DNA of 64,000 nt from an uncultured virus (IMG/VR IMGVR_UViG_3300011008_000092). Its lineage: Duplodnaviria; Heunggongvirae; Uroviricota; Caudoviricetes. Below the pieces are notes generated by a model. The model saw only the letters and a program-made list of their open reading frames with translations, was not told the origin of the DNA and ran no database searches. Each line of letters begins with the position of its first letter. Position 1 is the stretch's first letter. The position numbers were made by a program, and so were the translations under genes. The stretch lies in IMG/VR virus record IMGVR_UViG_3300011008_000092, one strand, 5' to 3'. Below are positions 37 to 23,900 of this stretch, piece after piece.

Positions 37-858
37 ATGATGTGCGAAGACACCGAGGGCGCACTAAAGGGCGCACATGAGGGCGCAAGAAATAGGAAAG
101 GTTCCCAAAAGAAAGAGAAAGTTTCCCCCACACCCCCTATAAAGAGTAAAGAAAGTACCCCTCCAAAGGACCAAAAAAATAAAAAAATAAGATTTTCGGA
201 CAATTTTTTTGAAAAAGTCAGAGTTGCTTTCAACGTTCTGGCAATCGGAACGGCCATCAGGTCGTGCACGAAGATGTCTGATGAACGCAAACAGCTCGTC
301 CGCAACTTCGTTGATGACTACTCTGTCGAGGATATTGACCGTCTCTTCGCTGCCGTACGGGAAGCTCCTCGTCTCTATAAGGGTCGCTCTGGAAAGTCCA
401 TCCAGTTCGATACGCTCTTCTCTCCAAAGTTCTATGTTGGCATCATGGAAGGTAGCTGGTCGGCACCAGAGCCTCAGCCTAATGTGGACTCCTCCTTACC
501 TGAGCCTCCTGCCCAGACTGAGACTGCCGACAGTTCCCTTCCTCAGCCAACTTATAAGGAACGAAAGAAGAATGAGCGTCGTGAACTTCTTCGGGGATAC
601 ATCGAAGGTTTCAAGAAGAATCCTAAGAGCTCCTGTGGAAAAATTCTAATGGCTGCCTATAACAACGGGGAACTGAAAGAGCTCGGACTGGACTGGAAAC
701 CTTCTGTGGATTCCGATCTCCAACAGCTTGAAGAGCTTAACAAACAGGGACAGAAGATACATTCCAGTAGTAATAAGAAGTCTGCCTCAGCAGCAGAGGT
801 AATTGCAGACGATCCCAATGGGCTGCTTGCAAGAATTATCAAACAACAAAATAGCTAA
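37..858 (+). CDS. Phage replication initiator-like protein (probably 5'-truncated by window edge)
   Basis: Low-complexity linker, KEKVSPTPPIK motif and a conserved-looking FDTLF..K...IMEG domain; first gene of the replication cluster; frame open to window edge. Confidence 0.5.
   Translation: MMCEDTEGALKGAHEGARNRKGSQKKEKVSPTPPIKSKESTPPKDQKNKKIRFSDNFFEKVRVAFNVLAIGTAIRSCTKMSDERKQLVRNFVDDYSVEDIDRLFAAVREAPRLYKGRSGKSIQFDTLFSPKFYVGIMEGSWSAPEPQPNVDSSLPEPPAQTETADSSLPQPTYKERKKNERRELLRGYIEGFKKNPKSSCGKILMAAYNNGELKELGLDWKPSVDSDLQQLEELNKQGQKIHSSSNKKSASAAEVIADDPNGLLARIIKQQNS
56..87 (+). repeat. Three AGGGCGCA direct repeats at 12-bp period (possible ori iterons)
   Basis: Copies at 56-63, 68-75 and 80-87, followed by an A/T-rich tract at about 170-215. 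Confidence 0.45.
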
Positions 859-863
859 AGATT

Positions 864-1418
864 ATGGCATACAACAAACAGATTATCGATGCCCTTAATG
901 CTAGGGGACAGCAGAAGAGCGAAGAGAAGCCTCGCAAACATAACTTTCAGCGTGAAGGTGGCTTGCAGATTCAGTGCGTGACATGGTTCCGCTATCAGTA
1001 CAAAGCATTCTCTAAGCTTCTTATCCATCCTAGGAATGAAGCTGGGAAGCCGTCATCACGCAAGGTGGCAATAGATGCTGCTGCGGGTGTTGTGCCAGGT
1101 GTTCCCGATCTGATGTTACTTCTCCCGTCTCAGGAGATTGTTACCGATGAGCCAAGCGTTTATTTCGGGCTTGGTATTGAATTGAAGTATGGCAAGACTA
1201 ATAATCAGTCTCCTGCTCAGAAGGAATATCAGCGTTACATGGAGGCTGCCGGATACAAGTACGTGGTAGTTCGGTCACTTGAAGAGTTCCAGAAGGTCGT
1301 GACAGACTACATGTCAAGTGCCCTGTTTGCCTATAAGGAACGTGTTCAAAATCTCTTCGGACAGGACGATGACACAGCATCCAATAAGGCTCTGCTGAAA
1401 CGTATCGCTAACAGATAA
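864..1418 (+). CDS. VRR-NUC-type PD-(D/E)xK nuclease
   Basis: EGGLQIQCVTWF...HPRNE...GVVPGVPDL...IELK...QSPAQKEY motif series. Confidence 0.8.
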   Translation: MAYNKQIIDALNARGQQKSEEKPRKHNFQREGGLQIQCVTWFRYQYKAFSKLLIHPRNEAGKPSSRKVAIDAAAGVVPGVPDLMLLLPSQEIVTDEPSVYFGLGIELKYGKTNNQSPAQKEYQRYMEAAGYKYVVVRSLEEFQKVVTDYMSSALFAYKERVQNLFGQDDDTASNKALLKRIANR

Positions 1419-1446
1419 TAGTATTAACCCAATAAAAACTACGATT

Positions 1447-1968
1447 ATGAAAGAAGAAAAGAAGAATGGCACTGCTGTCAATGAGAAGTTCACAGACAAT
1501 GGTAATGGTTCAACTGTACGCTCACGTACTGCCAACTGGTTTGAGTGCAAACTGCGCTATGAGAAAACAACAGAGGATGGACTGCAAAAGAAAGTGTCTG
1601 AGTGGTATTGTGTAGATGCCGTCACCTTTGGAGAAGCAGAAGAGCGTGTTATCAAGGAAATGTCTGCCTATGTCAGTGGTGAACTTGACGTGGATGACAT
1701 CAAGAGAGCGAAGTATCATGAGGTATTCTTCTCAGGTGACGAGACGGATGACTGCTGGTATAAGGCAAAGCTGGCGTTCCTTACCATTGACGAAAAGACT
1801 GATAAGGAGAAACGTTCGTATGTGTTCTATCTGGTACAGGCTCATTCCCTGGAACGTGCCCGACAGATTGTCGATAAGGTCATGGGCGGTTCAATGATTG
1901 ACTATGAGATTAAGAGCCTCAGCGAGACTCAACTGATGGACTTGTATGAATACAGGGAGGAGAAATAG
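1447..1968 (+). CDS. DUF4494-like Bacteroidota protein
   Basis: WFECKLRYEKTTEDGLQKKVSEWYCVDAVTFGEAE and WYKAKLAFLTIDEK motifs. Confidence 0.75.
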   Translation: MKEEKKNGTAVNEKFTDNGNGSTVRSRTANWFECKLRYEKTTEDGLQKKVSEWYCVDAVTFGEAEERVIKEMSAYVSGELDVDDIKRAKYHEVFFSGDETDDCWYKAKLAFLTIDEKTDKEKRSYVFYLVQAHSLERARQIVDKVMGGSMIDYEIKSLSETQLMDLYEYREEK

Positions 1969-1969
1969 T

Positions 1970-2200
1970 ATGCCTACGGAAAATTTCTCTTTCGAGTCAA
2001 GACAGGCTACCATCCGTGACCGTGTGGCTACCATCTGTCTGAAGTATATGAACGCCAAGGGGCTTACCAAAGCGGAGTTTGCCAACCTTATCCGTCTCTC
2101 TACCTCTCAGTTGAAGGAGATTACCAACAAGCGTAGCAATACTACTCTGAATGTACTTGCTAAGATTTCCTACGTAACTGGTGAACGAATAATTATTTAA
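1970..2200 (+). CDS. XRE-family helix-turn-helix regulator
   Basis: KGLTKAEFANLIRLSTSQLKEITNKRSNTTLNVLAKI HTH pattern; ATG directly after upstream stop. Confidence 0.75.
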   Translation: MPTENFSFESRQATIRDRVATICLKYMNAKGLTKAEFANLIRLSTSQLKEITNKRSNTTLNVLAKISYVTGERIII

Positions 2201-2204
2201 CGCT

Positions 2205-3359
2205 ATGAAGATTACAGTACATGCAAATAAATTGCTGGCTGCCCTGAAGAAAGTTGAACAGGGAGCTGCACAGAACTGGGAAATACCAGTGCTGAGACAT
2301 TTCGTATTTGAAGCTCTGCCTAATAGAACGTTGACGGTATCTGCCTCTAATATGGAGATCTTCTTAAAGTCAACTGTCTCAGATGCGGATGTGGAGCATT
2401 TGACTGAACGCACGAAATTCGCTGTGGAGATTCCTGCCTTCCGTCAAGGTATCAGAACTCTTGGTGATGAGTTGATAGAGATTGTGGTCCATGACTACCA
2501 GCTGACCGTTGAACATAGCTCTGGAAGATTCTTCCTTCCTCTATACAAGAGCCCTGACGAGTTCCCTGTACCTTCTCCCGTGATGGAGCCTCATCATACT
2601 ATTGCTTTAGAGGATCCTGCGGTTCGCTCGTGGCTGGATACACTATCACTGGCTATGGCAGAGGATGAGCTGCATCCTTTCATGAACAGCATCCTGTTTG
2701 AGTTTGACAAATGTCTTAATATGGTTTCTTCTGATGGTCATATACTGGCGTTGGTGGAAACTCAGATAAAGAGCGAGTTCCAGGGAGAATACATAATACC
2801 TCGATTCGTAATACAGAGGCTTCAGCGGATATTGCCTAAAACAGGATTCCTTACTATGCAACTGTCAGAGAAAGTATACGACTCCTGTATTACCATCGAA
2901 GATGGCAGTGAAACTTTGACAGTACACTTCAAACGTACTGATGGCAGGTATCCAAAGTGGAGATCTGTTGTTGACAGGAATTACTCTTTCGATGTCACTG
3001 TTGGAAGAAGGCAGCTTCTCAGGAGTCTTGAACGTTCCTGCATATTCTCAAATTCCAGTAGTAACCTAGGTGTCTTTAGGCTGGATAAAGACATTCCTTC
3101 TAAGCTCATTGTAGAGTCTGATGATGTGGACTTTGAAACCAAGGCGATTGAATCGGTAGATGCAGAATACTTGACTTCTGACAACTTTGCAATAGGTCTT
3201 AAAATCCCTACTCTTATCAAATGTCTTAAACCGATGACCTCTCAGCAGATAATATTCCATATCAAGGATGCTGGCAGAGCTGTGCTCATGGAGCCTGATG
3301 TTCAGCCGGACAAAGAGAAGATTACGCTTCTTATAATGCCAATGTTACTCAATAATTAA
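2205..3359 (+). CDS. dnaN: Phage-encoded DNA polymerase III beta sliding clamp
   Basis: 384 aa; TVSASNME, MVSSDGHILA, GRYPKWRSVV and terminal LLIMPM motifs of the beta clamp. Confidence 0.85.
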   Translation: MKITVHANKLLAALKKVEQGAAQNWEIPVLRHFVFEALPNRTLTVSASNMEIFLKSTVSDADVEHLTERTKFAVEIPAFRQGIRTLGDELIEIVVHDYQLTVEHSSGRFFLPLYKSPDEFPVPSPVMEPHHTIALEDPAVRSWLDTLSLAMAEDELHPFMNSILFEFDKCLNMVSSDGHILALVETQIKSEFQGEYIIPRFVIQRLQRILPKTGFLTMQLSEKVYDSCITIEDGSETLTVHFKRTDGRYPKWRSVVDRNYSFDVTVGRRQLLRSLERSCIFSNSSSNLGVFRLDKDIPSKLIVESDDVDFETKAIESVDAEYLTSDNFAIGLKIPTLIKCLKPMTSQQIIFHIKDAGRAVLMEPDVQPDKEKITLLIMPMLLNN

Positions 3360-3369
3360 ATATGCAACT

Positions 3370-4044
3370 ATGAAACAGAATTATTTTATACAGATTCGTA
3401 CAATGACGGGGTGGAATGCCAACAAGTCAACAAATGCTATGTGCGCCATCATACAACAGAAACTGGAGAATGTCACTATAGAGTCCATTGATGATATTCA
3501 AAAAGTGCTGGAATGGGTCAGTTTATGGTGTGGCACTGTCAATAAACAGAATCCTCGTTCCCGCAAACTGTCTGCATCTCAAATATGGGAGGCTTCAGGC
3601 GGAAACTTTCACTTTACAATCAGTTTGGAGAATGCAGAAGCCTTCCTTCAGGTTTCTTTTTCTCCTGTCAGACATCAGTACCACAGCCCTAGTATGATGA
3701 ACGAACTGCTTGAAGTAAATGATTACGTAATGCCAAATGATACTCGGTGTCATTGTAAGCAGTGGAATCCTGAGAAATGTAAAGATGGAGATGTTATCGT
3801 ACATAATGAAAGGGGTTATATAATCATCGTTAAATCCGTAACCGATAAAATATCTTTCTATGCCTACCTGTATCATATGGAGAAAGACATATATCTGGAA
3901 ATACATGAGAATGGTGATGGAACTGGATATGGGAGACCTGATTTCCATTATGCTACCAGAGAAGAGAAAATGATACTCGACAATGAACTGTCTGTTCTAG
4001 GTTTGAAATGGAATCCTGCTACTTTAAAGTTTGAGAAGATATGA
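3370..4044 (+). CDS. Hypothetical phage protein
   Basis: 224-aa ORF in operon; C-terminal KDGDVI...YATREEK...GLKWNP motif common in Bacteroidota phages. Confidence 0.65.
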   Translation: MKQNYFIQIRTMTGWNANKSTNAMCAIIQQKLENVTIESIDDIQKVLEWVSLWCGTVNKQNPRSRKLSASQIWEASGGNFHFTISLENAEAFLQVSFSPVRHQYHSPSMMNELLEVNDYVMPNDTRCHCKQWNPEKCKDGDVIVHNERGYIIIVKSVTDKISFYAYLYHMEKDIYLEIHENGDGTGYGRPDFHYATREEKMILDNELSVLGLKWNPATLKFEKI

Positions 4045-4190
4045 AAGAATATTGTATGGGTATCGAGTGTCCTGTTAAGCAACAGTGCAGAAGATTTATC
4101 GACGGCCTAGAGGCTGGCATATCAGATGGCACTCAGGTCAGATTCTTCCGCAAGTGTACTAACCAGAAGAAATTCTTGAAAGATGAATAG
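4041..4190 (+). CDS. Small Cys-rich protein (49 aa)
   Basis: Manual translation MKEYCMGIECPVKQQCRRF...KCTNQKKFLKDE*; ATGA overlap with upstream stop. Confidence 0.6.
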   Translation: MKEYCMGIECPVKQQCRRFIDGLEAGISDGTQVRFFRKCTNQKKFLKDE

Positions 4191-4411
4191 TTCTCCCCCC
4201 CCCCATTGGAATATTGCTGGACATCACGGAGAATGGGAAGTTCATCTGCCAGCTCAGGTACACAAAACGTGGATTCCCTGAAATGATTGATGGCCGTCTG
4301 ACGGAGGTACAAGACATTGCGGACATACAGAAGTTTGTATTCCAACAGAGGCCGTCTCTGAGACATCGGAAAATAAGAATCGAATTTGCAAAACAAAGAG
4401 TATTTAGATAG
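4183..4411 (+). pseudogene. Small phage gene frameshifted at a C10 tract (possibly phase-variable)
   Basis: ATG at 4183 overlaps upstream gene end; C10 at 4195-4204; with C9 it reads in frame into ORF 4214-4411. Confidence 0.5.
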
Positions 4412-4413
4412 AT

Positions 4414-4602
4414 ATGTTTCGTATTGGACTGATTGACGTGGATGGTCATGCAAAGAAAAAGAAATGGGGAGCTACCGTTTATCCTAATCTGGCTCTCATG
4501 AAGATTGCTGCCTGGCATAAACAGCGAGGGGATAACGTGGAGTGGTACAATCCTCTCACCACAGAAAAATATACCATCGTGTATATGTCGAAGATTAAAT
4601 AA
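4414..4602 (+). pseudogene. N-terminal remnant of a phage radical-SAM-type protein
   Basis: IGLIDVDGH...PNLALMKIAAWHKQRGDNVEWY...VYMSK matches the N-terminus I recognise from phage radical-SAM proteins; stops after 62 aa with no CxxxCxxC. Confidence 0.6.
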
Positions 4603-4627
4603 ATAACAACATTAAAAATTCAAAATT

Positions 4628-5264
4628 ATGAATGAGCAACAAGATTTAAAAATGCATCTCCTTGAAAAGTATGGAGACGTAAAGGACAAACAGAGTATAG
4701 ACTTCTGCCGTGAAGCCTATAAGTTCTTAGTAGAAGGTGACATAGTAAAGTTTGAATGTACGAAAGAAGGAACAGTTACTATTGAGCGCACAACACCGGT
4801 TAACTCAAAATCGTCTTCAGCTCCAATAGCTGTTGACCTCGGACTGCCATCAGGTCGGCTGTGGGCTGACCGCAATATCGGAGCCTCATCACCTGAAGAT
4901 GTCGGATTGTATTTCTCGTGGGGCAATACCGATGGACATGTTTTCGGTACTGACTATGACTTCTATGAGGATTATGAAAATACGCCAGGCTCTAAGCTAA
5001 CAGGTGACATTGATGCTGAACATGACGCTGCAACAGTCAATATGGGTGCTCCTTGGAGACTTCCAACTACTGATGATTTCCAAGAGCTGTGCGATAACTG
5101 TACTCATGAGTTATGTTCTAGGAATGGCTATAAGGGTATGCTCTTTACTTCAAAGATAAACGGAAATTCAATATTCTTTCCTTNNNNNNNNNNNNNNNNN
5201 NNNNNNNNNNNNNNNNNNNNNNNNNNNNNNNNNNNNNNNNNNNNNNNNNCGGGCGGTTCAGTAA
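4628..5264 (+). CDS. Remote DGR target protein 2 (CLec/FGE-like domain); VR lies in the N gap; true stop at 5262-5264
   Basis: VDLGLPSGRLWADRNI...YFSWGNTDGH...GAPWRLPT...INGNSIFFP, paralogous to 19110-20279; post-gap CGG GCG GTT CAG TAA = RAVQ*, identical to the end of target 1. Confidence 0.88.
5182..5261 (+). repeat. DGR variable region VR2 (mostly unresolved; N at 5184-5249)
   Basis: Left flank TTCTTTCCTT and right flank CGGGCGGTTCAG match the two ends of VR1. Confidence 0.82.
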
Positions 5265-5332
5265 CATCTTTCGCCCAAGCCATTCAGAGTCGGCCACCAG
5301 TCGCTTACCAAAGCGACACAAGGCAGACTCTG
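5262..5332 (+). promoter_or_regulatory. IMH and target-recognition hairpin of VR2
   Basis: TAACATCTTTCGCCCAA identical to post-VR1 sequence; hairpin GTCGCTT-ACCA-AAGCGAC (5300-5317) inside outer stem CAGAGTC/GACTCTG. Confidence 0.78.
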
Positions 5333-5391
5333 CAACTCAAAGTAAAATAACAAATACCAGCCGTAGGCTGGTCGGATAAAAAACAAAAATT

Positions 5392-5613
5392 ATGGATTTA
5401 GAACAAAAGAAAATATTTATGAAGATAGCTCAGTCATATTGTGAGGTGGCTACGTCAAGGCTTACTGGCGAAAGAGCGATGGTCTCCTGCCCTTGCAGTC
5501 TTACTACTGCACAGGACATCGTGAAACGTGAAAACAGCAAACCGTCTCGCCTTAGAGTCTGGCTTAGGCACTCAGTGGCTATATATCCGTACAAAACCAA
5601 AATTATACTATAG
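5392..5613 (+). CDS. Hypothetical protein
   Basis: ORF in operon with A-rich leader. Confidence 0.55.
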   Translation: MDLEQKKIFMKIAQSYCEVATSRLTGERAMVSCPCSLTTAQDIVKRENSKPSRLRVWLRHSVAIYPYKTKIIL

Positions 5614-5615
5614 AT

Positions 5616-5882
5616 ATGGACTTGTTTACCAATGACCCTGTATTTGCTCCTTCTGAAAAACCAAAGAGGAAGGCATTACGTAACAGACTCGGACAGTTCG
5701 CTACTGCCGAACAGATTGATGTTGAGCGCACAAAACATGAGAACTTGGTGCTCAAAAGAAAAGCAACCCAGTTCTATCGTGCGTTCCTTGCTCTCTCCAA
5801 GGATAATTCGAGACTCACCCGTGAATTGAATGAGATGAAGAATAAACTAAAAGGACTTATTAATGGAACAGCAAAACATTGA
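5616..5882 (+). CDS. Hypothetical protein with RNxxGQFA motif and coiled coil
   Basis: RNRLGQFAT motif; tightly coupled ORF. Confidence 0.6.
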   Translation: MDLFTNDPVFAPSEKPKRKALRNRLGQFATAEQIDVERTKHENLVLKRKATQFYRAFLALSKDNSRLTRELNEMKNKLKGLINGTAKH

Positions 5883-6270
5883 ATTTATCCGATCACACTG
5901 TCACATCATGAATCTTACTGATGATGAGATTAAACTGACGCTGCGCTTGATGGAACTGACTGAACAGTTCAGCTGGAGTGACATCTACAAGAAATCTCCT
6001 GAAGTTAATGCACTCTCTAATGAGGATAAGTTTCTTCTCTTACTGGGGAAAATGGATAAGGAAGATTATATGGTTCGCTCCAAGACGCTCATCCACTATT
6101 TCGGAGGGTCTGTATATCAGTGGCGCAAAATCGGACGAAAGCATCCTCTTACTGATGTAGCCACAGCTTTCAGCGAAAGTTCCTCTGGCTACTATGGACG
6201 TGGATGGGTTATCGCTCCTCATATCCATTCTCTTATGAAGTGTCTTAATACACCTATTGATAAATTATAA
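5863..6270 (+). CDS. Hypothetical protein
   Basis: 135-aa ORF in operon. Confidence 0.55.
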   Translation: MEQQNIEFIRSHCHIMNLTDDEIKLTLRLMELTEQFSWSDIYKKSPEVNALSNEDKFLLLLGKMDKEDYMVRSKTLIHYFGGSVYQWRKIGRKHPLTDVATAFSESSSGYYGRGWVIAPHIHSLMKCLNTPIDKL

Positions 6271-6282
6271 AAAAGTATCATT

Positions 6283-6921
6283 ATGAATGAAAGTATCAAC
6301 ATCGCTGTTGACCTTGAAACGCTGTCAACACGCCCTACAGCTGCCATCATTTCCATTGCAGCAAAAGCGTTCACGTTCTCTGACCCTCAGCCTGAAATCG
6401 GCTGCTTCTATGTGCCTGTCAATGCTACTACCTGTGCTATGTACGGTATGCACTTCTCAGAGAGTACCGTTGACTTCTGGTATCATCAGAAGGAAGAAGC
6501 GAAAAAGCCTCATCTGGAACTGTCAGATGCGGTCTGCTCCTTGAAAGTGGCTCTCCTGAAACTGAAGGACTGGGTGGATTCCGTACGTGCTATGTCTCCT
6601 GACAAAAAACTGCTGGTATGGATGCAAGGAACAGACTTTGATGGTGCCATCTTGCGCAATGCCTACTGTCAGGTATTCGGCTCGGAGGAAGCTATGCCTT
6701 GGAAGTACACTGAGCTTCGTGACTCTCGCACCTTCATTCATGGGTTTGTTGGCTATGTGCGTCCTGATCTGCCAATCCCATATGATGCCATACCAGAGAA
6801 TCCCAACTGGATAAAACACGACGCTCTCTCTGACTGTGACCAGCTCATCTGGAACGTCCGTCACTGCGTGACTCTCATGAATGAATATGTTACATCTTCT
6901 ATCGCTGCTGCCAATCTATGA
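6283..6921 (+). CDS. DEDDh 3'-5' exonuclease (phage exoribonuclease type)
   Basis: AVDLETLST, QGTDFD, RDSRT and HDALSDC motifs. Confidence 0.85.
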   Translation: MNESINIAVDLETLSTRPTAAIISIAAKAFTFSDPQPEIGCFYVPVNATTCAMYGMHFSESTVDFWYHQKEEAKKPHLELSDAVCSLKVALLKLKDWVDSVRAMSPDKKLLVWMQGTDFDGAILRNAYCQVFGSEEAMPWKYTELRDSRTFIHGFVGYVRPDLPIPYDAIPENPNWIKHDALSDCDQLIWNVRHCVTLMNEYVTSSIAAANL

Positions 6922-7223
6922 AGAAGCAAAGAATATATCTCTCAGGTAAGATTACAGGTTATCCTGACTACAGACAGGCTTTCGACGCTGCTGAACAGGC
7001 TGTTACCAGAAAAGGGGTGAAGGTGCTCAATCCTGCAAGGATGTGGGGCATCTTCCAGCCCATCTTCGTCGGACTCCCCTACTCCGTACAACTCATACTT
7101 GACCTCTGTGTTCTGGCTAGCTGTGATAAGATCGCATATCTTCCGAACTGGAAGTACTCAAATGGGGCTCTCGTTGAGCATTCTTTTGCTGATGCACTAA
7201 AACTCAAAACAATATACTTGTGA
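6918..7223 (+). CDS. DUF4406 / nucleoside 2-deoxyribosyltransferase-like protein
   Basis: IYLSGKITG...F..AE...VLNPA...CDKIAYLPNWKYSNGALVEH. Confidence 0.8.
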   Translation: MKKQRIYLSGKITGYPDYRQAFDAAEQAVTRKGVKVLNPARMWGIFQPIFVGLPYSVQLILDLCVLASCDKIAYLPNWKYSNGALVEHSFADALKLKTIYL

Positions 7224-7762
7224 CGGGTGTTATATATCAGATAATGTTCCATCCCAGGGTTGGCGTGATACGCTTCTATCAGCGGTACAGTGACCGCAAG
7301 GAGGCGTTGCGCCAATGCCGTCAACTCAACAACGACGTGCAGGATGGACTATATTTCATCAAAACCATTTATCCTATAGCAGAAATGAAAACAGAGAAAT
7401 TTGATGAGTTTATCGCTCTCGTGACCAGCGTCCGTGAGGCACAGAAAAAATTCTATGTTGGCCGTGACCATCAGGATATGTTGAAAGCGATGACACTGGA
7501 GGATAGGCTGCGAAAGTATATTGAGAAATGTAAGCAGACGCTGGCTGCCCATCCTCAATACAAGCCTCAGCCTACATCTAAAGCATACTTTGACATTGTA
7601 GATACATGGCTAAAGAAAACAAAGGAGTATTTCACCCATAAAAAAGCGAATGACGAAGATAAAAATGTCCTTCGTGAACGTCTCAGGGAGTGCAAGGATT
7701 TCGAGGCTCGCATAGATCTGGTGTTAGAGGAATACGCAAAATATCAATCAACAGATAAGTAA
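7220..7762 (+). CDS. Hypothetical protein
   Basis: ORF overlapping upstream stop; VREAQKKFY helical motif; start uncertain. Confidence 0.55.
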   Translation: MTGVIYQIMFHPRVGVIRFYQRYSDRKEALRQCRQLNNDVQDGLYFIKTIYPIAEMKTEKFDEFIALVTSVREAQKKFYVGRDHQDMLKAMTLEDRLRKYIEKCKQTLAAHPQYKPQPTSKAYFDIVDTWLKKTKEYFTHKKANDEDKNVLRERLRECKDFEARIDLVLEEYAKYQSTDK

Positions 7763-7783
7763 ATCTATTAAATTTGCATTGTT

Positions 7784-8173
7784 ATGATTAAGAAACTCAG
7801 ACTTTTAAGAGACAGGTTGGCCATCTGGGCTATCCAACGTTTCAATTTCAAGCTGCCTGACCTTCAACAGACTGACTATGTGAAGCCAGGCAGGGTGTAC
7901 TACTATTATGGTCGCTGGGTACGCTTGGTGCCTCAGCCTACAGAAGTAAAAGACTATATCCGCAATGTCTTTGAACTGGAAGGTGTTCGTGACATTATTC
8001 CTGATCACATCGGAGAGTGTGTAGCGGAAAAGATGTGCACTCACTGTGCACTGCATATCCTCGGACTTCCATGTAAGAAGCATCATGGTGGTACTGTCCG
8101 TGACTTGTGTATTAAATATCGTTATCAATTAGTTAAAGGCAAGAAATATGACGAAAAAATTGAATCAGAATGA
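7784..8173 (+). CDS. Hypothetical Cys-rich protein
   Basis: CTHCAL...C...C possible Zn motif. Confidence 0.55.
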   Translation: MIKKLRLLRDRLAIWAIQRFNFKLPDLQQTDYVKPGRVYYYYGRWVRLVPQPTEVKDYIRNVFELEGVRDIIPDHIGECVAEKMCTHCALHILGLPCKKHHGGTVRDLCIKYRYQLVKGKKYDEKIESE

Positions 8174-8906
8174 CCCGTTGCGTCCTCGTAATATCCGCAA
8201 GCGTGAACATCGTGAAGCTCGTAAGACTCACAAACAAATAATGGCCAAGAAGAAGGAGGCTATGGAGAAAGGTGTGGAGAATAAAAGCGAGGCAATAGAT
8301 AAGAATAAGGTTTTCCATGCCGGAGTGGTCCAGGAGGCAAAGGAGCGTATCGCTCGTATGAAGGAGAAATTCCCGCTGCCTACGTTCATCAAGTCTTTGC
8401 GTCGTGGAAAGATTTCCAAGGTATTGGTCATCAATCGTGACGGCAAACGTCGTGAACTGCTTCCTGACCTTCCTGATCGTCACGTCATCCTTTGTCACAG
8501 CAGGGTTGCCAAAGTTATCACCTCTTCTGTATGTGTGTTCAATAAGGTGACGGAACATGAGGAGATTAACGAAGAGAAGCAAGAGCGTCGATGGATTGAC
8601 GGCTCATGGACGCTGGCTCCGTGCTCTCCTGCCATGTTGCGTGGTACAACTGTCCAGCATGTCACTCGTCGTAAGTGGTGGTTCCTGCGTCGGTACTGGT
8701 ACCAGATCACTTTCGATGGCAGGGTTCAGCCAGCAGGTATGTTCTTCGACTATGACATCGACCCCTCACGTCCAAAGCAGGCATTCTATGTGACTCATGA
8801 GTACGTGAAGGTTGAGAAACTTGACAGGGAGAATGACTTCCTGCGCTTCTGGCTTAAGAAGGAGAATATCACTCCGTACGTTCCACCCAAGAAGAGAAGG
8901 AGGTAG
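8148..8906 (+). CDS. Hypothetical basic protein
   Basis: 252-aa ORF in operon. Confidence 0.65.
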   Translation: MTKKLNQNDPLRPRNIRKREHREARKTHKQIMAKKKEAMEKGVENKSEAIDKNKVFHAGVVQEAKERIARMKEKFPLPTFIKSLRRGKISKVLVINRDGKRRELLPDLPDRHVILCHSRVAKVITSSVCVFNKVTEHEEINEEKQERRWIDGSWTLAPCSPAMLRGTTVQHVTRRKWWFLRRYWYQITFDGRVQPAGMFFDYDIDPSRPKQAFYVTHEYVKVEKLDRENDFLRFWLKKENITPYVPPKKRRR

Positions 8907-8909
8907 TGT

Positions 8910-9302
8910 ATGTCTGATGTCGTTATCCTCAACAGGGCGAAGTCTCATCGCAAGGGTATTGTCATAGAGCGTAATGGTCGTATCACACTGCGCTCTCGTC
9001 CATGCCGTTTGCTGGGGCTGGAGACTGGCAGTAGGATTTCCTTTGTGGTGCTCGGACAGCAGATGTATCTACTGAAAGAGCCTGAGCCTCCCGTGAACAA
9101 AGATACGCTGCGTCTGTGTGGCCGAAAATTCCAGCTTCATTGCTGTTCTAAGGATACTGCTCTGGAAGTCTTGAAAAACGCGTATGGGGCTGGCAGACTC
9201 GATAAGGTGGAGCTGAACGTATCTCCTTCTGTGGTGTCTGTATCCATAGGGATGGATAAGTTCGATGCGCTTGCCGTTATCAATATTGTCGATAATCATT
9301 AA
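8910..9302 (+). CDS. Hypothetical protein (AbrB-like beta motif possible)
   Basis: NGRITL...LLGLETGSRISF pattern. Confidence 0.55.
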   Translation: MSDVVILNRAKSHRKGIVIERNGRITLRSRPCRLLGLETGSRISFVVLGQQMYLLKEPEPPVNKDTLRLCGRKFQLHCCSKDTALEVLKNAYGAGRLDKVELNVSPSVVSVSIGMDKFDALAVINIVDNH

Positions 9303-9356
9303 CAACAGGTGGGCTGCTGGGCGTGTCCAGGAGCCTGCCTTTAAATATAAGGTAAT

Positions 9357-16377: not shown

Positions 16378-16866
16378 TTAACTTTGAGTGTTGGTATTCT
16401 CTTCCTGTCCGTACTGACTCCAATCAATACCATCCTTCTCCTGATAGCCTGCTGCAAGACACTGCTGTTTCCATACGATACAGGCATCGTTGAAGGCTTT
16501 CATATCCTCTGCCGTCTCAAAGGTATGGTAGATAGGTGTTCCGTCCTCCTGCTCACCGATTTTGAAGGTGGCGGGCACTACTGCCTGCGAGAAGTTCATC
16601 TGATTCTCCTCCGACAGCCACACGGGATTGCCGTTCCATACGAAACCGCTTACTATCTTCTCTTTCACATGGGCATTGATGTCGGCAAGGATGGCTTTCT
16701 TGATGTCTGCGAATGAGAGTTGCGCACACTGCTTCTTGTAGAAGTAAATCTCGTACCACTCGTAATGGTCTTTGTCTAACTTTGTCAGTCCATAGCAGAC
16801 TGCGATACGACTGCCATCTTCTCTAACTGGCGAAAAGTCGCTCTTCTTTCCTGTAACTTTGTTCAT
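16378..16866 (-). CDS. Tail-fibre-associated protein (DUF4376-like)
   Basis: GFVWNGNPVWLSEENQMN motif; position after fibre/DGR module. Confidence 0.55.
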   Translation of the reverse strand: MNKVTGKKSDFSPVREDGSRIAVCYGLTKLDKDHYEWYEIYFYKKQCAQLSFADIKKAILADINAHVKEKIVSGFVWNGNPVWLSEENQMNFSQAVVPATFKIGEQEDGTPIYHTFETAEDMKAFNDACIVWKQQCLAAGYQEKDGIDWSQYGQEENTNTQS

Positions 16867-18067
16867 AATCATTACTTTTTAATATGTTATAGTATTTATA
16901 TCTGTCTGTTATCTTAGTCATTCCTTCATCGAAGATTCCTATACGCAATATCTCCTTGGTCATGAATATACGTCGGCAAAGGTTGTAGGATGAGCTGTGC
17001 ATGAAAATTCCAAGATAGGAATTGACGCTTCTCAGCACCTTCCAAGGTTTCCGGTAGTCGAACTCCTGTATCTTCTTCAAGATACGCTGTAAGGCATGGT
17101 TGCTGATATAGGTACGATAGGGTTTGATGTATGTTCCAAGAAACTCCACTCCATGATGCACCTCCGATATTTCCAGTTTTCCCATGTGCAAGTCCAGTCC
17201 TAATTCCGTACTGAGGAAGCTGCGTATCTCTGGAACCAATGACAATAGCCATTTCTTGTCTGACGAGACTACGGCTGCATCGTCCACGTACCTGCCATAG
17301 TACTTGCATTTCAGCTTTCGCTTCATGAATTGGTCGAACACGTTGAGATAGACGTTGCTGAAAAGCTGACTGGTCAGATTGCCAATAGGTAGCCCAAGCC
17401 CTGGCGCAAGATGCAAAAGGCTCTTGGCGGGGTCTAAGCCATCCCAATTCGACAGGTCTCCTACAATGATGCAATTCTCCTTTGGGTCGAGCATGACTAT
17501 TATTTCTGTCAGCCATATCACGAAGTCCATATCCAGCACGTCGTTCCACGTTCTCATGGAGCCTTTGTTGATACGATGTGTACCTAACCTCCTGAGTGTC
17601 GCCACAGCTATCTCCAGCAATCTCTCTCTTACTATGTGCATGAAATAGCCTCTGATGTCCAGGTGCATCACATAGCACTTTCGCTGCCAGTTCTGACTCT
17701 CCTTCCTGCAAAAGTCCGTTATTCTGCCTATGCCGTAGTGGGTGCCACGTTCCTTGATGCAACTGTAGGTGTCCTGTATGAATGTTCTCTCGAATAGCTG
17801 ATGGGTATAGTTGAAATACAGGTGATGTACGATACGGTCTCTGAACATCGCTGCAAATATCTCCCTCTTCTTGGGATATTCCACTATGAAGCATTTCGAG
17901 GGCTGGGGCTTGTAGCTTCTGGTGAAGAGATCTTCGCACAGACTCTCCATATTCTCCTTCAGATTCATTTCCCACTTGCGGACATACGAGCGTTCTACCT
18001 TGCAACGACGGGCGCAATAGTAGGCAACATACAGGTCTCGTAACAGCTGCTGACGTATTAATTGCAT
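16823..18067 (-). CDS. DGR reverse transcriptase
   Basis: KKREIFAAMFRDRIVHH, HLDIRGYF, GLPIGNLTSQLFSNVYL (DGR-type GxxxSQ) and RYVDD; likely start MQLIRQ at 18067. Confidence 0.95.
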   Translation of the reverse strand: MQLIRQQLLRDLYVAYYCARRCKVERSYVRKWEMNLKENMESLCEDLFTRSYKPQPSKCFIVEYPKKREIFAAMFRDRIVHHLYFNYTHQLFERTFIQDTYSCIKERGTHYGIGRITDFCRKESQNWQRKCYVMHLDIRGYFMHIVRERLLEIAVATLRRLGTHRINKGSMRTWNDVLDMDFVIWLTEIIVMLDPKENCIIVGDLSNWDGLDPAKSLLHLAPGLGLPIGNLTSQLFSNVYLNVFDQFMKRKLKCKYYGRYVDDAAVVSSDKKWLLSLVPEIRSFLSTELGLDLHMGKLEISEVHHGVEFLGTYIKPYRTYISNHALQRILKKIQEFDYRKPWKVLRSVNSYLGIFMHSSSYNLCRRIFMTKEILRIGIFDEGMTKITDRYKYYNILKSNDYEQSYRKEERLFAS

Positions 18068-18101
18068 AGAAGATAAGTAAAAGGATGACCAGAATTGTGT
18101 G

Positions 18102-18276
18102 CTGAACCGCCCGACCAGCAAAGCCGTTGAACCGATTGTTGTTGTTCTGAGGGTTGACCCCACCACTGTTGAAGTTCAAGTTCCGACCATTCGTTGCGGA
18201 GTTGAGCGATGACGACCAGTAGTTCCCGTTCCCGCCACGGTTGTTCCATAACGAGCCATTGCCGTTTCCAGAGCAA
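18102..18276 (-). repeat. DGR template repeat (TR), 175 bp
   Basis: Non-coding copy of VR1 with 17 AAC/AAT codons; 3' flank (IMH*) CACACAATTC differs from VR flank TAACATCTTT. Confidence 0.96.
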
Positions 18277-18441
18277 TGAAATAAGGCCATTCGGTCACTG
18301 CCTTTCACTACCACACAAAGGGATTGCACCGGGCAAAACCATCGGGTATCTTGCCTTTTTCCCGCACCTCCTGAAAGGTGAAGGACGAGTGACCTGTGAA
18401 CATCTTTCTGAACCATCCTTTTGAAATAATAAATGATTATA

Positions 18442-18993
18442 CTAAAACATGGCAGCTACCTGTTGGCGGAGCTCACGGAGAAACTCATACGCCTCCATAG
18501 GTGACTTATTCTCTAAAGGGAATGACAGTACCCTGCCAAGAATATCTGATATACGAGTGATGCGGGGTGCTGCCTCTGCCACCTCACGCTCTTCACGACG
18601 CTGCTTGTTACCCCTGTTTATTGGAAGTCCTGCTTTCCAATCGTCCACCTGACTGCGGATGGTGTCGAAATCGGATTCCATCACATCGTCCGTCAACTTG
18701 ACGGTAACGTCAAGCTGGGTGTCTGTGATAGCCGTGAACTGAACTTCATCACCATCAGGAATATACTTACCTAGGGAACTGACAGGAAAGCCGACAAACA
18801 CATTCATGTACCCATCTTTCAGCTTCTTGACTGTCGGAGTAGGAACGGAATCGCTCATCGGGAACATGGTCATCAGCCATGCACTCCAATCATAAGCATG
18901 ATAGAAGGTGCCTTCTTTCAGCAGGTGTACCACACCATACTGCTCTTTCGTTTTCCTGTTGTTTTCAAGATTTATTATATCTTCAATCTTCAT
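18442..18993 (-). CDS. DGR accessory protein, MutS domain-I-like (MSL type)
   Basis: VHLLKEGTFYHAYDWSA resembles MutS GxFYE motif; lies between VR and TR, where avd usually sits. Confidence 0.7.
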   Translation of the reverse strand: MKIEDIINLENNRKTKEQYGVVHLLKEGTFYHAYDWSAWLMTMFPMSDSVPTPTVKKLKDGYMNVFVGFPVSSLGKYIPDGDEVQFTAITDTQLDVTVKLTDDVMESDFDTIRSQVDDWKAGLPINRGNKQRREEREVAEAAPRITRISDILGRVLSFPLENKSPMEAYEFLRELRQQVAAMF

Positions 18994-19025
18994 ATATCTA
19001 TTTCTTGTTATCATTCTTTCGGTAC

Positions 19026-19112
19026 GTGCCTTGGGTCGCTTGGGAGCGACTGGAGGCACGACCTACAGAATGAGGGTTTGTTTTGTTCTGTTTGGTTGGG
19101 CGAAAGATGTTA
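19026..19112 (-). promoter_or_regulatory. IMH and target-recognition hairpin of VR1
   Basis: GTCGCT-CCCA-AGCGAC (19035-19050) within outer stem GTGCCT/AGGCAC. Confidence 0.78.
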
Positions 19113-20279
19113 CTGAACCGCCCGACCAGCAAAGCCGTGGAACCGATTGTCGTTGTACTGAGGGTGGACCCCACCACTGTTGAAGTACAAGTACCGACCA
19201 TTCGACGCGGAGTTGAGCGATGACGACCAGTAGTACCCGTGCCCGCCACGGTCGTACCATAACGAGCCACCGCCGTACCCAGAGCAAGGAAAGAAGAGAG
19301 TATTACCATTGAGCTTTGAGCGTATATGCAAGCCCGTAATACCGTTCAGCGTACAGCGTTTATCGGCTGTCGCTGTGTCAATCACATTGCCACTGGCATC
19401 TAAGTACTCGATATTCGCAAACAGCTCTGCATATTCCTCAGTTGTCGGCAACCTCCAAGGTGCACCAAGGTTTGCTCTTGCAAAGTCGAATGACGGGCTC
19501 ATATGACCTGTGAGCTTCGCTCCTGGACTTGACACGTATGGCTCCTGGTCATTGCCACTTCCCCAAAAATAACTTCCAAAGGATGATGCCGATGTCGGGT
19601 TGTGTCCGTCTGTGTTACCCCATGAGAAGAAAGTACACTCATACTGGAACTCAGAGGCTGCAAAACCATTAGCCTGCGTAATGTCGATATTCTTCTTAGC
19701 CCATAGCAAGCCGGATGGCAGTCCCATATCCACCACCAAGTCACTGGGTGCTGCCGACTGCTCCTGTCCCAGCATAGCTACCACATCCCAATGCGTTCCG
19801 TCGTAGAGCAACAGAAGCGTCATGCCAGGACGTACCACTCCTGGCTGCAAAGCGGTGCCGTTAATCACTATGGGTTTCGCTCCCGTGCCACTCACATTCA
19901 ACGTTGCACCTGCCACACTGATAGCTCTGGTGAAGCGGATGGCAACAATGGCGTTCTTCAGCAACAGGAAGTTACTGATAGTTGCCACCTTCGCTGCCGT
20001 TGGTGCCTCTGTGCTGCAGGTGCCGAAGAAATTGCAGCCTCCGATAGTTTTCAGGAGGTTGGCATTGGTTACGAAACCTGCATTGTTGCCACTGTTCACA
20101 CCGATGAGTCTGGTGGCATTCTCTCCAATGTCACTCAGTGCCTCCGTCAGTGCGGAGAAGATCATCTTCTTCACATTTGCTCTGGTGATGTTCTTGAACT
20201 CTCCATTGAGCAAACCTACGAGGTAGTCAAGACTCTGTCCGCTACCATCGTTGTACTCGGTAATTTTTCTGTCTGCCAT
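19110..20279 (-). CDS. DGR target 1: tail-fibre/receptor-binding-like protein with C-terminal CLec/FGE-like domain
   Basis: ATLNVSGTGAKPI...YDGTHW fibre-type domain, then VDMGLPSGLLWA domain ending in VR. Confidence 0.88.
   Translation of the reverse strand: MADRKITEYNDGSGQSLDYLVGLLNGEFKNITRANVKKMIFSALTEALSDIGENATRLIGVNSGNNAGFVTNANLLKTIGGCNFFGTCSTEAPTAAKVATISNFLLLKNAIVAIRFTRAISVAGATLNVSGTGAKPIVINGTALQPGVVRPGMTLLLLYDGTHWDVVAMLGQEQSAAPSDLVVDMGLPSGLLWAKKNIDITQANGFAASEFQYECTFFSWGNTDGHNPTSASSFGSYFWGSGNDQEPYVSSPGAKLTGHMSPSFDFARANLGAPWRLPTTEEYAELFANIEYLDASGNVIDTATADKRCTLNGITGLHIRSKLNGNTLFFPCSGYGGGSLWYDRGGHGYYWSSSLNSASNGRYLYFNSGGVHPQYNDNRFHGFAGRAVQ
19113..19287 (-). repeat. DGR variable region VR1
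   Basis: 175-bp ungapped match to TR with 16 mismatches, all at TR adenines (coding strand). Confidence 0.96.
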
Positions 20280-20925: not shown

Positions 20926-23900
20926 TTAAGAACCCCAATCCGCGTTCCATATTTTATTAACACTATCATATATTAACCAATGATGCTTATAGCCGCCGAA
21001 TGACACATTCGTATAAAACGAACCGTTTGGGTGACGAATTTTATCTGTTCCGCTTGCGGTGATGTAAACACGCCCGTATGGTATTATAACATATTCTTGA
21101 CCATCTTCTGGTGCGTTTGGTAAAGTGAGAGTAATATTTTCTTTCGTGCAGAACACATTGTTGTCATAAATTGACAAAGTTTGAGAACTGCCAACGCGCC
21201 TTGTCTCTTTTCTGAATCCTGCAATATTTCCTTTTGCTATAAGCAAAGCATGATTGCCGAACGTGGGGTCGTCATCCCAATTCCTTGCACCTTGGACATC
21301 TAAATAAATTCCGAAGTTAACAAGTAAAGGCCATGAAGCATCAGAGTGGCGGTTAACAATTCTCACGTTACCATGATAGTCTCCACTAATTTCTGCTGCT
21401 GGTCCGATAGTAATAGATGATTGTAAAGCAGAAATGGTTGTACTGTTGTTGTATTGCCCTCTTGTTAAAGTAACTCCAGATGGTTTAATGGTTAAACTGT
21501 CAACATGCCCATTATGCCTACTCCCTGCGTCCAATCCGTCACTAAAAGCAAATAAAGACAAATTGTAATCAACTTTAAAACCTCCAATATTCCCCCCTTG
21601 TTTAGCCGTTATAGTACCTGTAAACTCTCCGTCCCTGGCATGAATAACACCAGTAAATTCTCCATCAGTAGCAATAATCTTACCAGTTATCTCTGCATTG
21701 GTGGCAATCAGCTTACCCGCCTGTGTCACCCTGAAAGGAGCCGTGCTAATATCATTCTCGCTGGTAGAGCCTGCCCAGATACGTACACTGTCATCCGAGA
21801 TACCTGTTCCTCGCATTCCAGCCACTACCTTGTCACCCTTCGTCCAGCTGTACAGTGAAGCATAAACATAGGAAGTTCCTGTGAGTGCTGCTACAGGATT
21901 CACGGAAATGGCGTATTTTACACTGTCCTGTCTCCTGACAAGAGAAACAGTATAACTCTTCTGTACGCCTGCAAAGGTACACTTGATAGTAACGGTGGCT
22001 GTGTCGCTGGACATTCCTGTCACTTTGATGACTTTGGCATTGCCGTCGTATCCTGTTGAGTCTAGCGTACATCCTGTACCTGTAATGCTCCATGTGCCAG
22101 CAGCATATGGAACAGAACCTTGTCCGCCATAAATGTATGCCTTGATGACGGAAAGGGTATCACCGATAACTCCATCGGACGATTTCAGAACAGTGTCATA
22201 GTTCTTATCTACTACCAAGGTGAATCCTGATGTCGGTAACGTCGGCACCTCAGCACGACTAATTATAGCACCATTGGGTTCTAGCAGACGGAACACCACA
22301 CTACCAGAGCCAGGTTTGCTGATTCCCTGACCTGAATAATCCTGCCATGAAGTGTTATTGATGTTATACTGCCATGTGTAGCCCGATGGCTTGCTGACAG
22401 TACCACTGCTCTTGGTGGCTCCAGGAGAGGTAATCACAAATTGGTTGCCTGTACCAAATTTGATATAGGCGTTCTTAGCTATCAGCAGACTGGTATACAG
22501 TGGTCCTGCATCACTCAACTCTTCCCATACCGTCGTGCCGTTTACCGTCAACGAGAAGCTGCTGCCACTTGTATGTGTTGAAAGACATCTGTAGAACTTC
22601 CAGCCTGTGGCATTCACATCGTCTGGACGTGCCACTACGTCAATATAGCCGATGGCATGTTGTGAGCCTTGCGAGAAGTCCACTCCGTCATCATTCCTGT
22701 ATTCCGTATTGGCCTTCCATTCCGTCACTCTGGTCACACAGCCTTGCAATCCCTGTGAACCATTAGTGACAACGGCAACGGTCTTGGTATCGACAATATG
22801 ACCAGAGACTTGTGAAACAAGATTAATGACAAGCCGGGTAACATCCGTGCTCAACAATAGCCTGTACGTACCTCCCATCCTCCAAGTTTCACTGACAGTC
22901 CCATCTGAAGAGATCTGAAGGGTTACTTCGTTGAAATCAGTAAGGTGTACAGGAACGTCACTGCCACTTTGTCTATACATATTGACAAGAACATAATTTC
23001 CTTTGACAAACTGGTTATCGGCATTCTTCGTGATGCTGTCTGGATGAACTATCATATAATAGCGGACACTGGCATCACCTTTGGCTCCCTTCACGCTGCT
23101 GATGTGGTAGTATATCTTCTCACCACCTCCTGCCATCCTGACTACTTCCTTGTTCCATTGGTACGGCTTGGCATCCGTCGGCACAACAATCTCTGTAGTC
23201 CAATTGAGAATGTCACTTGGGTATTCTCTGCCGATCTCTGGCTCTGACTTGGCAGAAATCTGATAGTAGTTCTGAAGGTCGGCAATACCGTCTGAGAAAT
23301 TGCCAATACAATGCGGATAAGAAAAGCTCTGTGTACCGTCTGAGAAGTTGGTTAACTCAAAGTTCCATAGATATGGATACTCGGCATTAGTGGCTTCTCT
23401 GGGTCTGTCTTTACTCCAAACTGCCTCATCGAAATACACTTTACCGCTATCTTGCAGCACTGGTACGGATGGAGGTGCTGATGGATTGTCTGTCGTACCT
23501 CTTGCATAGTACTCGTCAACAGACAGGACGCTTCTTATATGTGGCATTTCTGGCTGTTTGAGTCCTTCTAAGAAGTAGTCGTAATAACTGCTGTTGATAG
23601 CCTCATCAATAATAACATAGCCTCCTTCTCCATTAAGTACCCTGTTGCCTGCTCCATCCTTCAGAAGTGTCATCACTGGTGGTACGTCGGTATTGTCCTT
23701 CTTACAGATGTATAGATTGCCTGCCATCTCATATACGTCGTTCACGCTGGCTACTACTCCTGTATGCCAGTGTCCTCTATAGGCAAAACTATCACCTGGG
23801 TCTCCCTTCTCACCGTATATCCTCGTAATGACCCATGAACCTTCATACTGTCCGTTTCTTACCTTTCTTTCGGCTCGCCATATCATCAGTCCGGCTGTCG

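Follow-up and report, generated by a model that had tools for sequence, protein, structure and literature searches.

The 64,000-nt stretch analyzed here in full, referred to as the window, is the record of an uncultured virus of the Caudoviricetes (IMG/VR IMGVR_UViG_3300011008_000092), and at positions 4628-5264 of its plus strand lies a gene of 243 codons that is very probably the second, distal target of the single diversity-generating retroelement (DGR) of this phage. In the DGR of Bordetella phage BPP-1 (Mtd, TR, Avd, and Brt), sequence is transferred with adenine-specific changes from a template repeat (TR) to a variable region (VR) at the 3' end of the target gene; a recognition flank 3' of the repeat distinguishes VR from TR, and a hairpin lies downstream. 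BPP-1 has a single adjacent target, a tail-fiber tip protein, whereas the window has two targets and an accessory open reading frame (ORF) without a family match. An earlier reading of the window, made from its letters and translated ORFs (hereafter the sequence-only reading), had proposed that one TR diversifies both targets.

Organization of the Two Target Loci

The features of both loci are collected in Table 1. The reverse transcriptase (RT) and TR of the cassette stand in the same genome as the distal gene. VR1, the VR of the proximal target (target 1), differs from the TR at 16 positions of the 175-nt repeat core, and all 16 are TR adenines, of which the core holds 43. The ORF between VR1 and the TR matched no Pfam or PHROG family.

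Table 1. Features of the DGR cassette, its proximal target, and the distal target gene (window positions).
Feature	Position	Strand	Details
Distal target gene, 5' part	4628..5183	+	Codons 1-185 and first base of Cys186; read by translation
N-module of distal target	codons 1-38		Two-helix, conserved
Linker of distal target	codons ~39-66
Putative lectin-type domain of distal target	from codon ~67		Lcl_C/Fib_succ-like
N placeholder	5184..5249	+	66 N covering most of VR2; real content 161 nt
VR2 end, stop codon, and 3' flank	5250..5278	+	Last 12 nt of VR2 (CGGGCGGTTCAG), TAA at 5262-5264, 14-nt flank; recognition block like an initiation of mutagenic homing (IMH) site
Hairpin 3' of VR2	5285..5332	+	Two-tier; minimum free energy -17.1 kcal/mol, z -8.24
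DGR reverse transcriptase	16823..18058	-	Pfam RVT_1, 8.8e-11; phrog_1423, 8.9e-84
Template repeat (TR)	18102..18276	-	In the VR frame 58 codons, 17 of them Asn (14 AAC, 3 AAT)
ORF of 205 aa between VR1 and TR	18442..19059	-	Accessory (Avd) gene position; assigned by position alone
Hairpin 3' of VR1	19025..19060	-	z -6.13
Proximal target 1	19110..20279	-	389 aa; VR1 at 19113-19287; directly downstream of a 2744-aa tail-like gene

Residues 1-185 of the distal gene (4628-5182) align with residues 170-331 of target 1 at 39% identity over 162 columns (E 2e-31), and all the motifs quoted by the sequence-only reading as signs of paralogy to the C-terminal domain of target 1 are present. The reading frame then runs into the only run of N in the window. 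The TR/VR1 repeat core starts with 19287 and 19286, and the last two readable bases before the gap, T5182 and T5183, are their counterparts, so that the start of the gap agrees with that of VR1 to within 2 nt, as had been claimed; T5183 is also the initial base of a Cys codon, the one with which the repeat opens in target 1. Beyond the gap, 5250-5278 repeats minus-strand positions 19096-19124 over 29 nt without a single difference, where no match would be expected by chance. These 29 nt carry the VR1-type flank TAACATCTTTCGCCCAA rather than the TR flank CACACAATTCTGG: the TR shares just the first 12 of them, its own flank diverging from the first base after GTTCAG. The recognition flank is hence present at VR2 and different at the TR, again in keeping with the earlier claim, while the visible part of VR2 in the window consists of those last 12 nt only, identical to the TR.

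A hairpin follows the flank, as it does at VR1, and the negative z of both folds (Table 1) stands against +1.02 for the stretch 3' of the TR. The two had been described as the same hairpin, a description that holds for their 6-bp inner stem (GTCGCT/AGCGAC) and two-tier architecture but not for their outer stems, loop, and distance from the VR. The VR ends lie 13.8 kb apart on opposite strands, close to the ~14 kb first estimated. Likewise, the reported lack of a signal peptide and fiber domain was upheld: residues 1-66 are highly charged and, as read from the sequence, contain no hydrophobic stretch, from which the lack of a signal peptide follows; the N-terminus matched no Pfam or PHROG family; and scans with both collections returned no fiber, collar, or virion-anchor domain for this gene, which lies outside the tail module, although a novel anchor is possible. 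A megablast search of 3400-5183 against GenBank phages gave no match, and the nearest virus record (G001) has neither the distal gene nor the TR.

Closure of the Assembly Gap

Sequencing run X1 contains 96% of the sampled words of the window and may come from its source sample. One X1 contig, of 593 nt, matches 4782-5183 with 402 nt and 5250-5279 with 30 nt and hence has, by subtraction, 161 nt between them, which is the exact base count between the corresponding points in target 1. With 161 nt in the gap, the TAA at 5262-5264 falls in frame at codon 244 and the gene therefore has 243 codons. The ORF listed for the window, 4628-5350, was rejected: with 66 N in place the frame skips this TAA and runs on to 5350, an end that is an artefact because the length of the N run is arbitrary. 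A protein from public assemblies that is 95% identical to the distal protein (P0003) has 243 aa and the ending ...GFAGRAVQ, as target 1 does, and other orthologues of 243 aa exist.

Run X6 holds a strain ~97% identical to the window (16 differences in 592 nt), one contig of which extends past 5183. Its first 30 letters beyond that point resemble the TR, from which they depart at three TR adenines and by a single T/C difference that is found in the P0003 lineage too (position 194). Exact-pattern scans contributed nothing to gap closure, with no hit for the 5' flank among viral contigs or for flank-gap-flank among metagenome contigs.

Given that the TR, VR1, and VR2 share long exact words, at which assemblers break, the 29 nt after the gap might have come from the VR1 locus and been misjoined to an unrelated lectin-domain gene. 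Such a scaffolding artefact is extremely unlikely in view of the X1 contig that spans from 4782 over the gap to 5279, of a second X1 contig that runs from 5250 to 5721 into unique sequence with zero differences from the window, and of the same order of gene, VR, and hairpin in relatives from three other runs and in four ungapped loci (L001, L002, L013, and L014).

Breaks of this kind are seen elsewhere. An X6 contig of 14.5 kb is bounded by the VR2 flank at one end and by the VR1 flank at the other, and in a related provirus (locus L011, genome G003) the proximal VR1 is broken by an N run at ~9700-9730, so that padded gaps at VRs are recurrent in this phage group. The X1 contigs over 4782-5721 have a depth of 10-12, compared with 5-8 on either side, and a 502-nt X1 contig consists of 5250-5721 together with 30 nt that lie on 4782-4811; this pattern could mean that the segment is tandemly duplicated, exists in a circular form, or is shared by a second strain.

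Diversification in Related Phages

Relatives of the window carry the distal VR in readable form. Two IMG/VR proviruses (L001 and L002) encode full-length orthologues with 58% and 55% identity over residues 1-185 and 4-185, respectively, each with a complete VR2 copy, a single TR, and an RT (57% or 74% identical) at a distance of 5-6 kb on the other strand. The distal VR2 of L011 differs from the TR at 22 positions, all of them TR adenines. In L012, one TR matches both VRs, with 16/16 mismatches in VR1 and 15/15 in VR2 at TR adenines. A two-tier hairpin follows all six VRs of three phages, its stem sequences differing between phages, and the one TR flank that was folded, that of the window, forms no hairpin.

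Variation at a finer scale is provided by the 90%-identity cluster of P0003, which has 20 members; 15 were listed and 14 aligned (a 130-aa fragment was omitted), all at least 89% identical to P0003, and their residues were mapped on the 58 codons of the window TR. All 17 Asn codons of the TR are hypervariable, with 4-8 residues each. Variation extends to 19 of the 26 adenine-bearing codons and to none of the 32 adenine-free codons, and upstream of the VR only 18 of 185 columns vary, with at most three residues each. Because variation is confined to adenines both in the orthologues and in this cluster, the distal gene is taken to be a working DGR target in nature, and the claim of the sequence-only reading that one TR serves two targets is corroborated by the same counts.

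Whether the gene still functions as a target in this particular phage deserves separate consideration, as it could be a relic, that is, a former DGR-target paralogue that has kept its flank and hairpin and is no longer diversified. The window VR2 is masked by N, and one family member (L013) resides in a genome without a TR copy or a close RT. A relic is nevertheless very unlikely: VR1, which looks active, has a 29-nt recognition block 100% identical to that of the distal gene, the gap has the length of VR1, every one of the 17 Asn codons is variable and every adenine-free codon constant in the P0003 cluster, and an assembly break at the VR fits a repeat or population diversity, the same being found at VR1 of L011 and at both VRs of the 14.5-kb X6 contig. 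The L013 gene itself (10001-10702, genome G005) has a VR-like 3' end and a downstream hairpin, and its 3-Mb genome has a weak RT-like match ~73 kb away; it is either an orphan target or the product of an incomplete assembly. As its genome lacks both a TR copy and a close RT, not every family member appears to be served by a DGR at present.

Protein Family and Architecture

The distal protein has at least 1008 homologues of 101-324 aa (E <= 0.001, from 1055 candidates), most of which measure 225-265 aa and span the query from end to end. When 42 members are aligned, they resolve into an N-terminal block (approximately M..Q.LKM.LL..FG....KS.DFCREAYKF..EGD), a linker of very variable length, and a C-terminal domain with the invariant motifs GLPSG, W, DRN, SWGN, and PW..P that ends in the VR. 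Precomputed labels place PF26707 (DUF8237) on many homologues, and DUF8237 is also the name of the closest Atlas clusters, in which 11-39% of the members bear the label; the protein is a member of a large Bacteroidales-phage family labeled DUF8237 (Pfam 38.1). A literature search for PF26707 or DUF8237 found no paper. According to the matching genome records, the hosts of the family are uncultured Bacteroidales of animal guts (Prevotella, Alloprevotella, and Bacteroidaceae), and the runs carrying the DNA derive from pig, goat, and other gut metagenomes. A tblastn search of the L002 orthologue against phages retrieved only seven distant lectin-domain matches (six Lak megaphage records and one unannotated contig).

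The AlphaFold (AF2) model of P0003 has a mean pLDDT of 69.9. It contains helices at residues 3-15 and 21-36 (pLDDT 80-89); the core at 64-186 is confident, the linker is of low confidence, and the VR part lies below 50. Foldseek comparison of the model with the PDB returned nothing at E <= 0.001. In VIA-align, the N-module matched assorted helical hairpins at an uninformative Z of 3-3.7, and residues 1-66 modeled as two copies scored 0.01, which speaks neither for nor against self-association.

The N-terminal block is not restricted to the type of domain that follows it in the window. The window ORF carries the motif LKMxLLxxFG...DFCREAYKF..E.D within its first ~40 residues (E 5e-22 with the N-module profile). 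This 41-position profile, built from five sequences and searched against 1.84 billion cluster representatives at E <= 0.001, matched 33, in 30 of which it lies at the N-terminus, the other three being multi-stretch internal matches; 32 of the proteins measure 47-270 aa, and one with an internal match measures 575 aa. Sequences were fetched for 22 of the 33, leaving out seven fragments below 100 aa, the three multi-stretch internal matches, and P0112. By eye rather than by formal classification, at least three types of C-terminal domain can be distinguished among the 22, namely the window type, a DUF1566 type (...WYWSSTE..A....RVRPVSAF), and a GIIHDGH...DWDFV type, and one protein has an unrelated C-terminus.

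One DUF1566-type protein, P0143 (N-module E 1e-16), is homologous over its full length to the distal DGR target of the isolated Bacteroides phage Bacuni F1 (42% identity, E 1e-52). The N-terminus of the Bacuni target is co-linear with the N-module, which is probably present there, and hhalign comparison of the family with the two Bacuni targets aligned only the VR region. The N-module profiles did not detect gp76 of Bacteroides phage BS-TP1, and none of the four longer candidates scored carries the module, which is weak evidence. Within one bacterial GTDB family, that of the L014 genome (a Bacteroidaceae metagenome-assembled genome), the module is present in 3 of 401 genomes. No literature on a shared N-terminal module or on a constant placement in the replication module was found within the searches made.

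As a separate observation, gp76 of BS-TP1 (L096 8476-9738; phage positions 79351-80613) is a DUF1566 protein related to P0143 and lies ~0.8 kb upstream of a 'tail protein' gene whose note lists phrog_1423 reverse transcriptase. This RT-like gene is the second of the phage, far from the RT at 26159-27376, and BS-TP1 may possess two DGR-type cassettes.

Genomic Address of the Distal Target

That the distal gene lies among replication genes was confirmed: the plus-strand block 37-12236 of the window encodes an O-like replication initiator, a resolvase, a DUF4494 protein, a sliding clamp, an exonuclease, and a deoxyribosyltransferase-like gene, and the DGR, lysis, tail, capsid, and portal genes are found on the other strand or further on. 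In L001 and L002, the surroundings comprise a helicase, a single-stranded DNA-binding protein (SSB), NinB, and a helicase loader, with a DNA methyltransferase directly upstream of the distal gene and a pyrophosphatase downstream, and in L013 they comprise a Sak4-like annealing protein, a DUF4494-type gene (phrog_19572), a helicase, and a loader. Full-length homologues are co-oriented inside a replication/DNA-modification module at all four loci examined.

The Bacuni-type counterpart behaves alike. In Bacuni F1, the distal target stands between the polymerase A and C5-methyltransferase genes, co-oriented with them, and at five further loci of this type (L097, L100, L101, L102, and L105) a DNA polymerase A gene lies just upstream in every case, followed downstream by a clamp (L097, L100, and L101), radical SAM (L100 and L101), methyltransferase (L097, L100, and L105), or primase-helicase gene (L101, L102, and L105). 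Taken together, the distal gene or its counterpart is co-oriented within a replication/DNA-modification module at 10 of 10 loci (the window, L001, L002, L013, the five Bacuni-type loci, and Bacuni F1). By tblastn of 41 window proteins, Bacuni F1 shares only three (the RT, a piece of the 2744-aa protein, and the integrase), and no capsid, portal, terminase, or replication protein common to the two phages was detected; since so little is shared, the distal-target arrangement recurs in otherwise unrelated phages.

Several smaller features of the neighborhood may be recorded. The gene upstream of the distal target (4414-4602, plus strand) is a 62-aa radical SAM remnant that covers the first 49 of 305 positions of phrog_9298. 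Contigs from runs X3, X4, and X6 hold ~860 nt extra between 4595 and 4592, and the X1 contig is colinear with the window; the truncation here and the extra sequence elsewhere indicate a deletion directly upstream of the distal target in this strain. Full-length radical SAM copies adjoin the clamp and methyltransferase genes in L100 and L101. Still further upstream, at ~4194-4206, a run of ~11 C separates small ORFs; X1 contigs break there, an X6 contig has one C fewer at 4205, and the run is either a length-variable homopolymer or a sequencing problem. In the complete 49.9-kb Bacuni-like genome of the L101 record (contig G409), an RT-family match at 43703-44908 contains one in-frame TGA.

Elsewhere in the window, two giant minus-strand ORFs encode 6183 aa (39679-58230) and 2744 aa (20926-29160). 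The 2744-aa protein has internal repeats and weak tail or host-specificity matches, and over a stretch of 359 residues it matches the first gene of Bacuni F1; capsid and adaptor of the window phage belong to the SU10 type. Over the TR and RT, a second frame is open for 509 codons (16926-18455, minus strand), within which an ATG-initiated ORF (18416-16926) of 496 aa reads the TR in the VR frame and then ~416 codons across the RT in another frame; seven stops fall in the 34 codons after its end. When the codon order of the RT was shuffled 2000 times, the longest open stretch off the RT frame averaged 67 codons and reached 207 at most. A long off-frame stretch is also found in L011 (521 codons), not in L012 or Bacuni F1, and could represent an overlapping gene or a constraint on the TR-RT transcript.

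Relation to Known Systems

The arrangement described above has precedents. Quimbyvirus, of the proposed 'Quimbyviridae', also combines one DGR with two lectin-domain targets, one adjoining the tail-fiber genes and the other (ORF 80 or 84) distal, on the opposite strand, and among DNA-modification genes (Benler et al., 2021, PMC8008677), and the distal target of the window occupies a comparable address, in the replication module on the strand opposite the structural and DGR genes. The likeness of the two distal targets (for Quimbyvirus, OMAC01000147.1) is drawn from the published description and not from sequence. The authors interpret the distal Quimbyvirus target as probably non-structural and 'in a defence-related island'; they infer a role in phage-host conflict and state that the function of non-structural phage DGR targets remains to be investigated. 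Bacteroides, Prevotella, and relatives are given as hosts of the group (Benler et al., 2021, PMC8008677). The systems differ in that the window RT is one open frame, whereas the Quimbyvirus RT is described as three overlapping ORFs in three frames (Benler et al., 2021, PMC8008677). Assignment of the window phage to 'Quimbyviridae' was considered and dropped: the Quimbyvirus large terminase subunit (TerL) is reported to group with Vequintavirinae and Ounavirinae (PMC8008677), whereas the nearest matches of the window TerL, taken pairwise and without a tree, are three Bacteroides temperate phages at 37-39%, followed by Vibrio and Stx-converting phages at ~26%.

Bacuni phages are likewise reported to have two targets, one 'on a distant part' of the genome, both of which the authors regard as adhesion proteins (Hedzet et al., 2021, PMC8143477). 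The distal target of Bacuni F1 (Bacuni_F1_00026, 'ORF 43' in PMC8143477) has 224 aa, and the proximal one (Bacuni_F1_00047) adjoins Avd, TR, and RT. With its short N-terminal segment, linker, and DUF1566-type domain carrying a C-terminal VR, the distal Bacuni protein parallels that of the window in architecture, although the subtype of lectin domain is a different one, the VR measures 35 aa, and the rest of the genome is unrelated to the window. Given these two published cases, the distal DGR target arrangement is not new, and the sequence-only reading over-rated its novelty.

Surveys supply the wider setting. Many non-adjacent targets within ~50 kb have been noted in phage-associated DGRs and called common inside prophages (Wu et al., 2018, PMC5758913), and another survey, by its own account unable to detect remote targets, mentions non-structural viral targets (Roux et al., 2021, PMC8144416). 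Tentaclins resemble the window in that phage DGRs diversify two functionally different lectin-domain targets, the purpose of which is called unclear by the authors (Baykov et al., 2023, PMC10743442). In tentaclins, the lectin domain is N-terminal, its VR lies at the 5' end, and Ig-like domains follow, the C-terminal Ig being conserved; both targets lie in the DGR cassette, and one tentaclin prophage is reported, from Flavonifractor plautii (PMC10743442). The distal protein of the window, in contrast, has its putative lectin-type domain at the C-terminus, shows no Ig-like domain in the model, and is encoded far from the cassette.

Proposed Function of the Distal Target

By analogy with the steps established for characterized DGRs such as the Bordetella phage system, the RT would copy the TR RNA into cDNA, misincorporating opposite adenines, and the cDNA would replace either VR, homing to any VR equipped with such a flank and hairpin. 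The two VRs have a terminal GC-rich block and 17-nt flank in common, with a strong hairpin behind each; the cDNA could therefore enter either one, so that a single cassette could rewrite both genes. In each target, the expected outcome is a rewriting of the 17 Asn codons that lie among the final 58. The distal product would then be a constant 38-residue two-helix module joined by a linker of variable length to a lectin-type domain with a variable C-terminal face and, judging from gene context, would be made together with the replication and DNA-modification genes.

On balance, we lean toward a variable binder that is not part of the virion, is made with the replication genes, and acts within the lysogen or the infected cell, where the N-module would hold on to a constant partner. 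Its invariant address among early-type genes and the lack of an export signal and of a recognizable anchor argue for such a role, and the presence of the constant module in phages with unrelated virion and replication proteins points to a partner that is host-side or self-contained. A cytoplasmic anti-defense role, of the kind that the sequence-only reading suggested for an early ligand-binding protein, is a plausible hypothesis with a published precedent. The protein might instead be a virion-associated accessory adhesin, a small fiber tip or decoration docked by its two-helix N-module and encoded outside the structural module, the diversification of which would broaden adsorption as for target 1. 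This alternative has a real but lesser probability. The lectin domain is of the same type as that of target 1, viral DGR targets are mostly tail proteins in surveys (PMC8144416; PMC12636319), the Bacuni authors' reading of both targets as adhesion proteins (PMC8143477) is in accord with it, and receptor-binding proteins in general also pair a short conserved N-terminal module with interchangeable binding domains. It accords poorly, however, with the co-orientation of the gene within a replication/DNA-modification module at all 10 loci, with the absence of any fiber or anchor domain from the Pfam and PHROG scans, and with the interpretation of the analogous Quimbyvirus gene as non-structural (Benler et al., PMC8008677). 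Moreover, the N-module is clearly or probably present in phages without a detectable common capsid, portal, or terminase protein, and a virion docking site would therefore have to be shared without detectable homology. A role for the distal protein other than these two is improbable.

The proposal of a DGR-diversified intracellular binder must also be weighed against several contrary points. To our knowledge, every experimentally studied phage DGR target is an adhesin. The adenine-specific pattern of VR2, masked in the window, is inferred from relatives and from the 30-nt loose end of the ~97% identical X6 strain, and the L013 member with its hairpin lacks the TR copy and close RT noted above. 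The lectin-type fold is putative, with sub-threshold Pfam matches (Lcl_C at best 27.3 bits against a cut-off of 34.9, with Fib_succ_major also below its own); the best structural match of residues 63-243 in VIA-align, the Thermus DGR variable protein TaqVP (5vf4; Z 4.3 over 122 residues), is below the informative level, as is the C-terminal domain of Legionella Lcl (8q4e; Z 3.0), one of a small number of further matches. Finally, the N-terminus of the Bacuni distal target scores E 0.25 and 0.088 against the N-module profiles, values that are not significant even though this is the best non-self match.

Should the distal protein act inside the cell, a broader and distinctly more tentative proposal may be entertained, namely that proteins combining the N-module with a lectin-type domain form an intracellular repertoire of phage-encoded binders, one variant per genome, made alongside the replication and DNA-modification genes, with the variable face directed at a polymorphic host molecule (a defense protein or other host factor) and the constant module at a conserved partner. 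The occurrence of the module on at least three lectin-type domains, in phages without common virion or replication proteins, fits this possibility, which we regard as doubtful at present.

Implications

The tendency of assemblers to break or N-pad VRs, as observed in the window, in L011, and in runs X1 and X6, means that distal targets are easily missed and that ORF calls over such gaps are wrong. The locus described herein adds a large family in which a conserved N-module is combined with interchangeable variable domains, the address in the replication module is fixed, and variation is confined to 17 codons. As the family is linked to an isolated, cultivable phage, Bacuni F1, the choice between a role in adsorption and an intracellular role is decidable there. 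If the notion of an intracellular repertoire is true, DGR diversification would act on a post-entry step of infection and not on adsorption alone.

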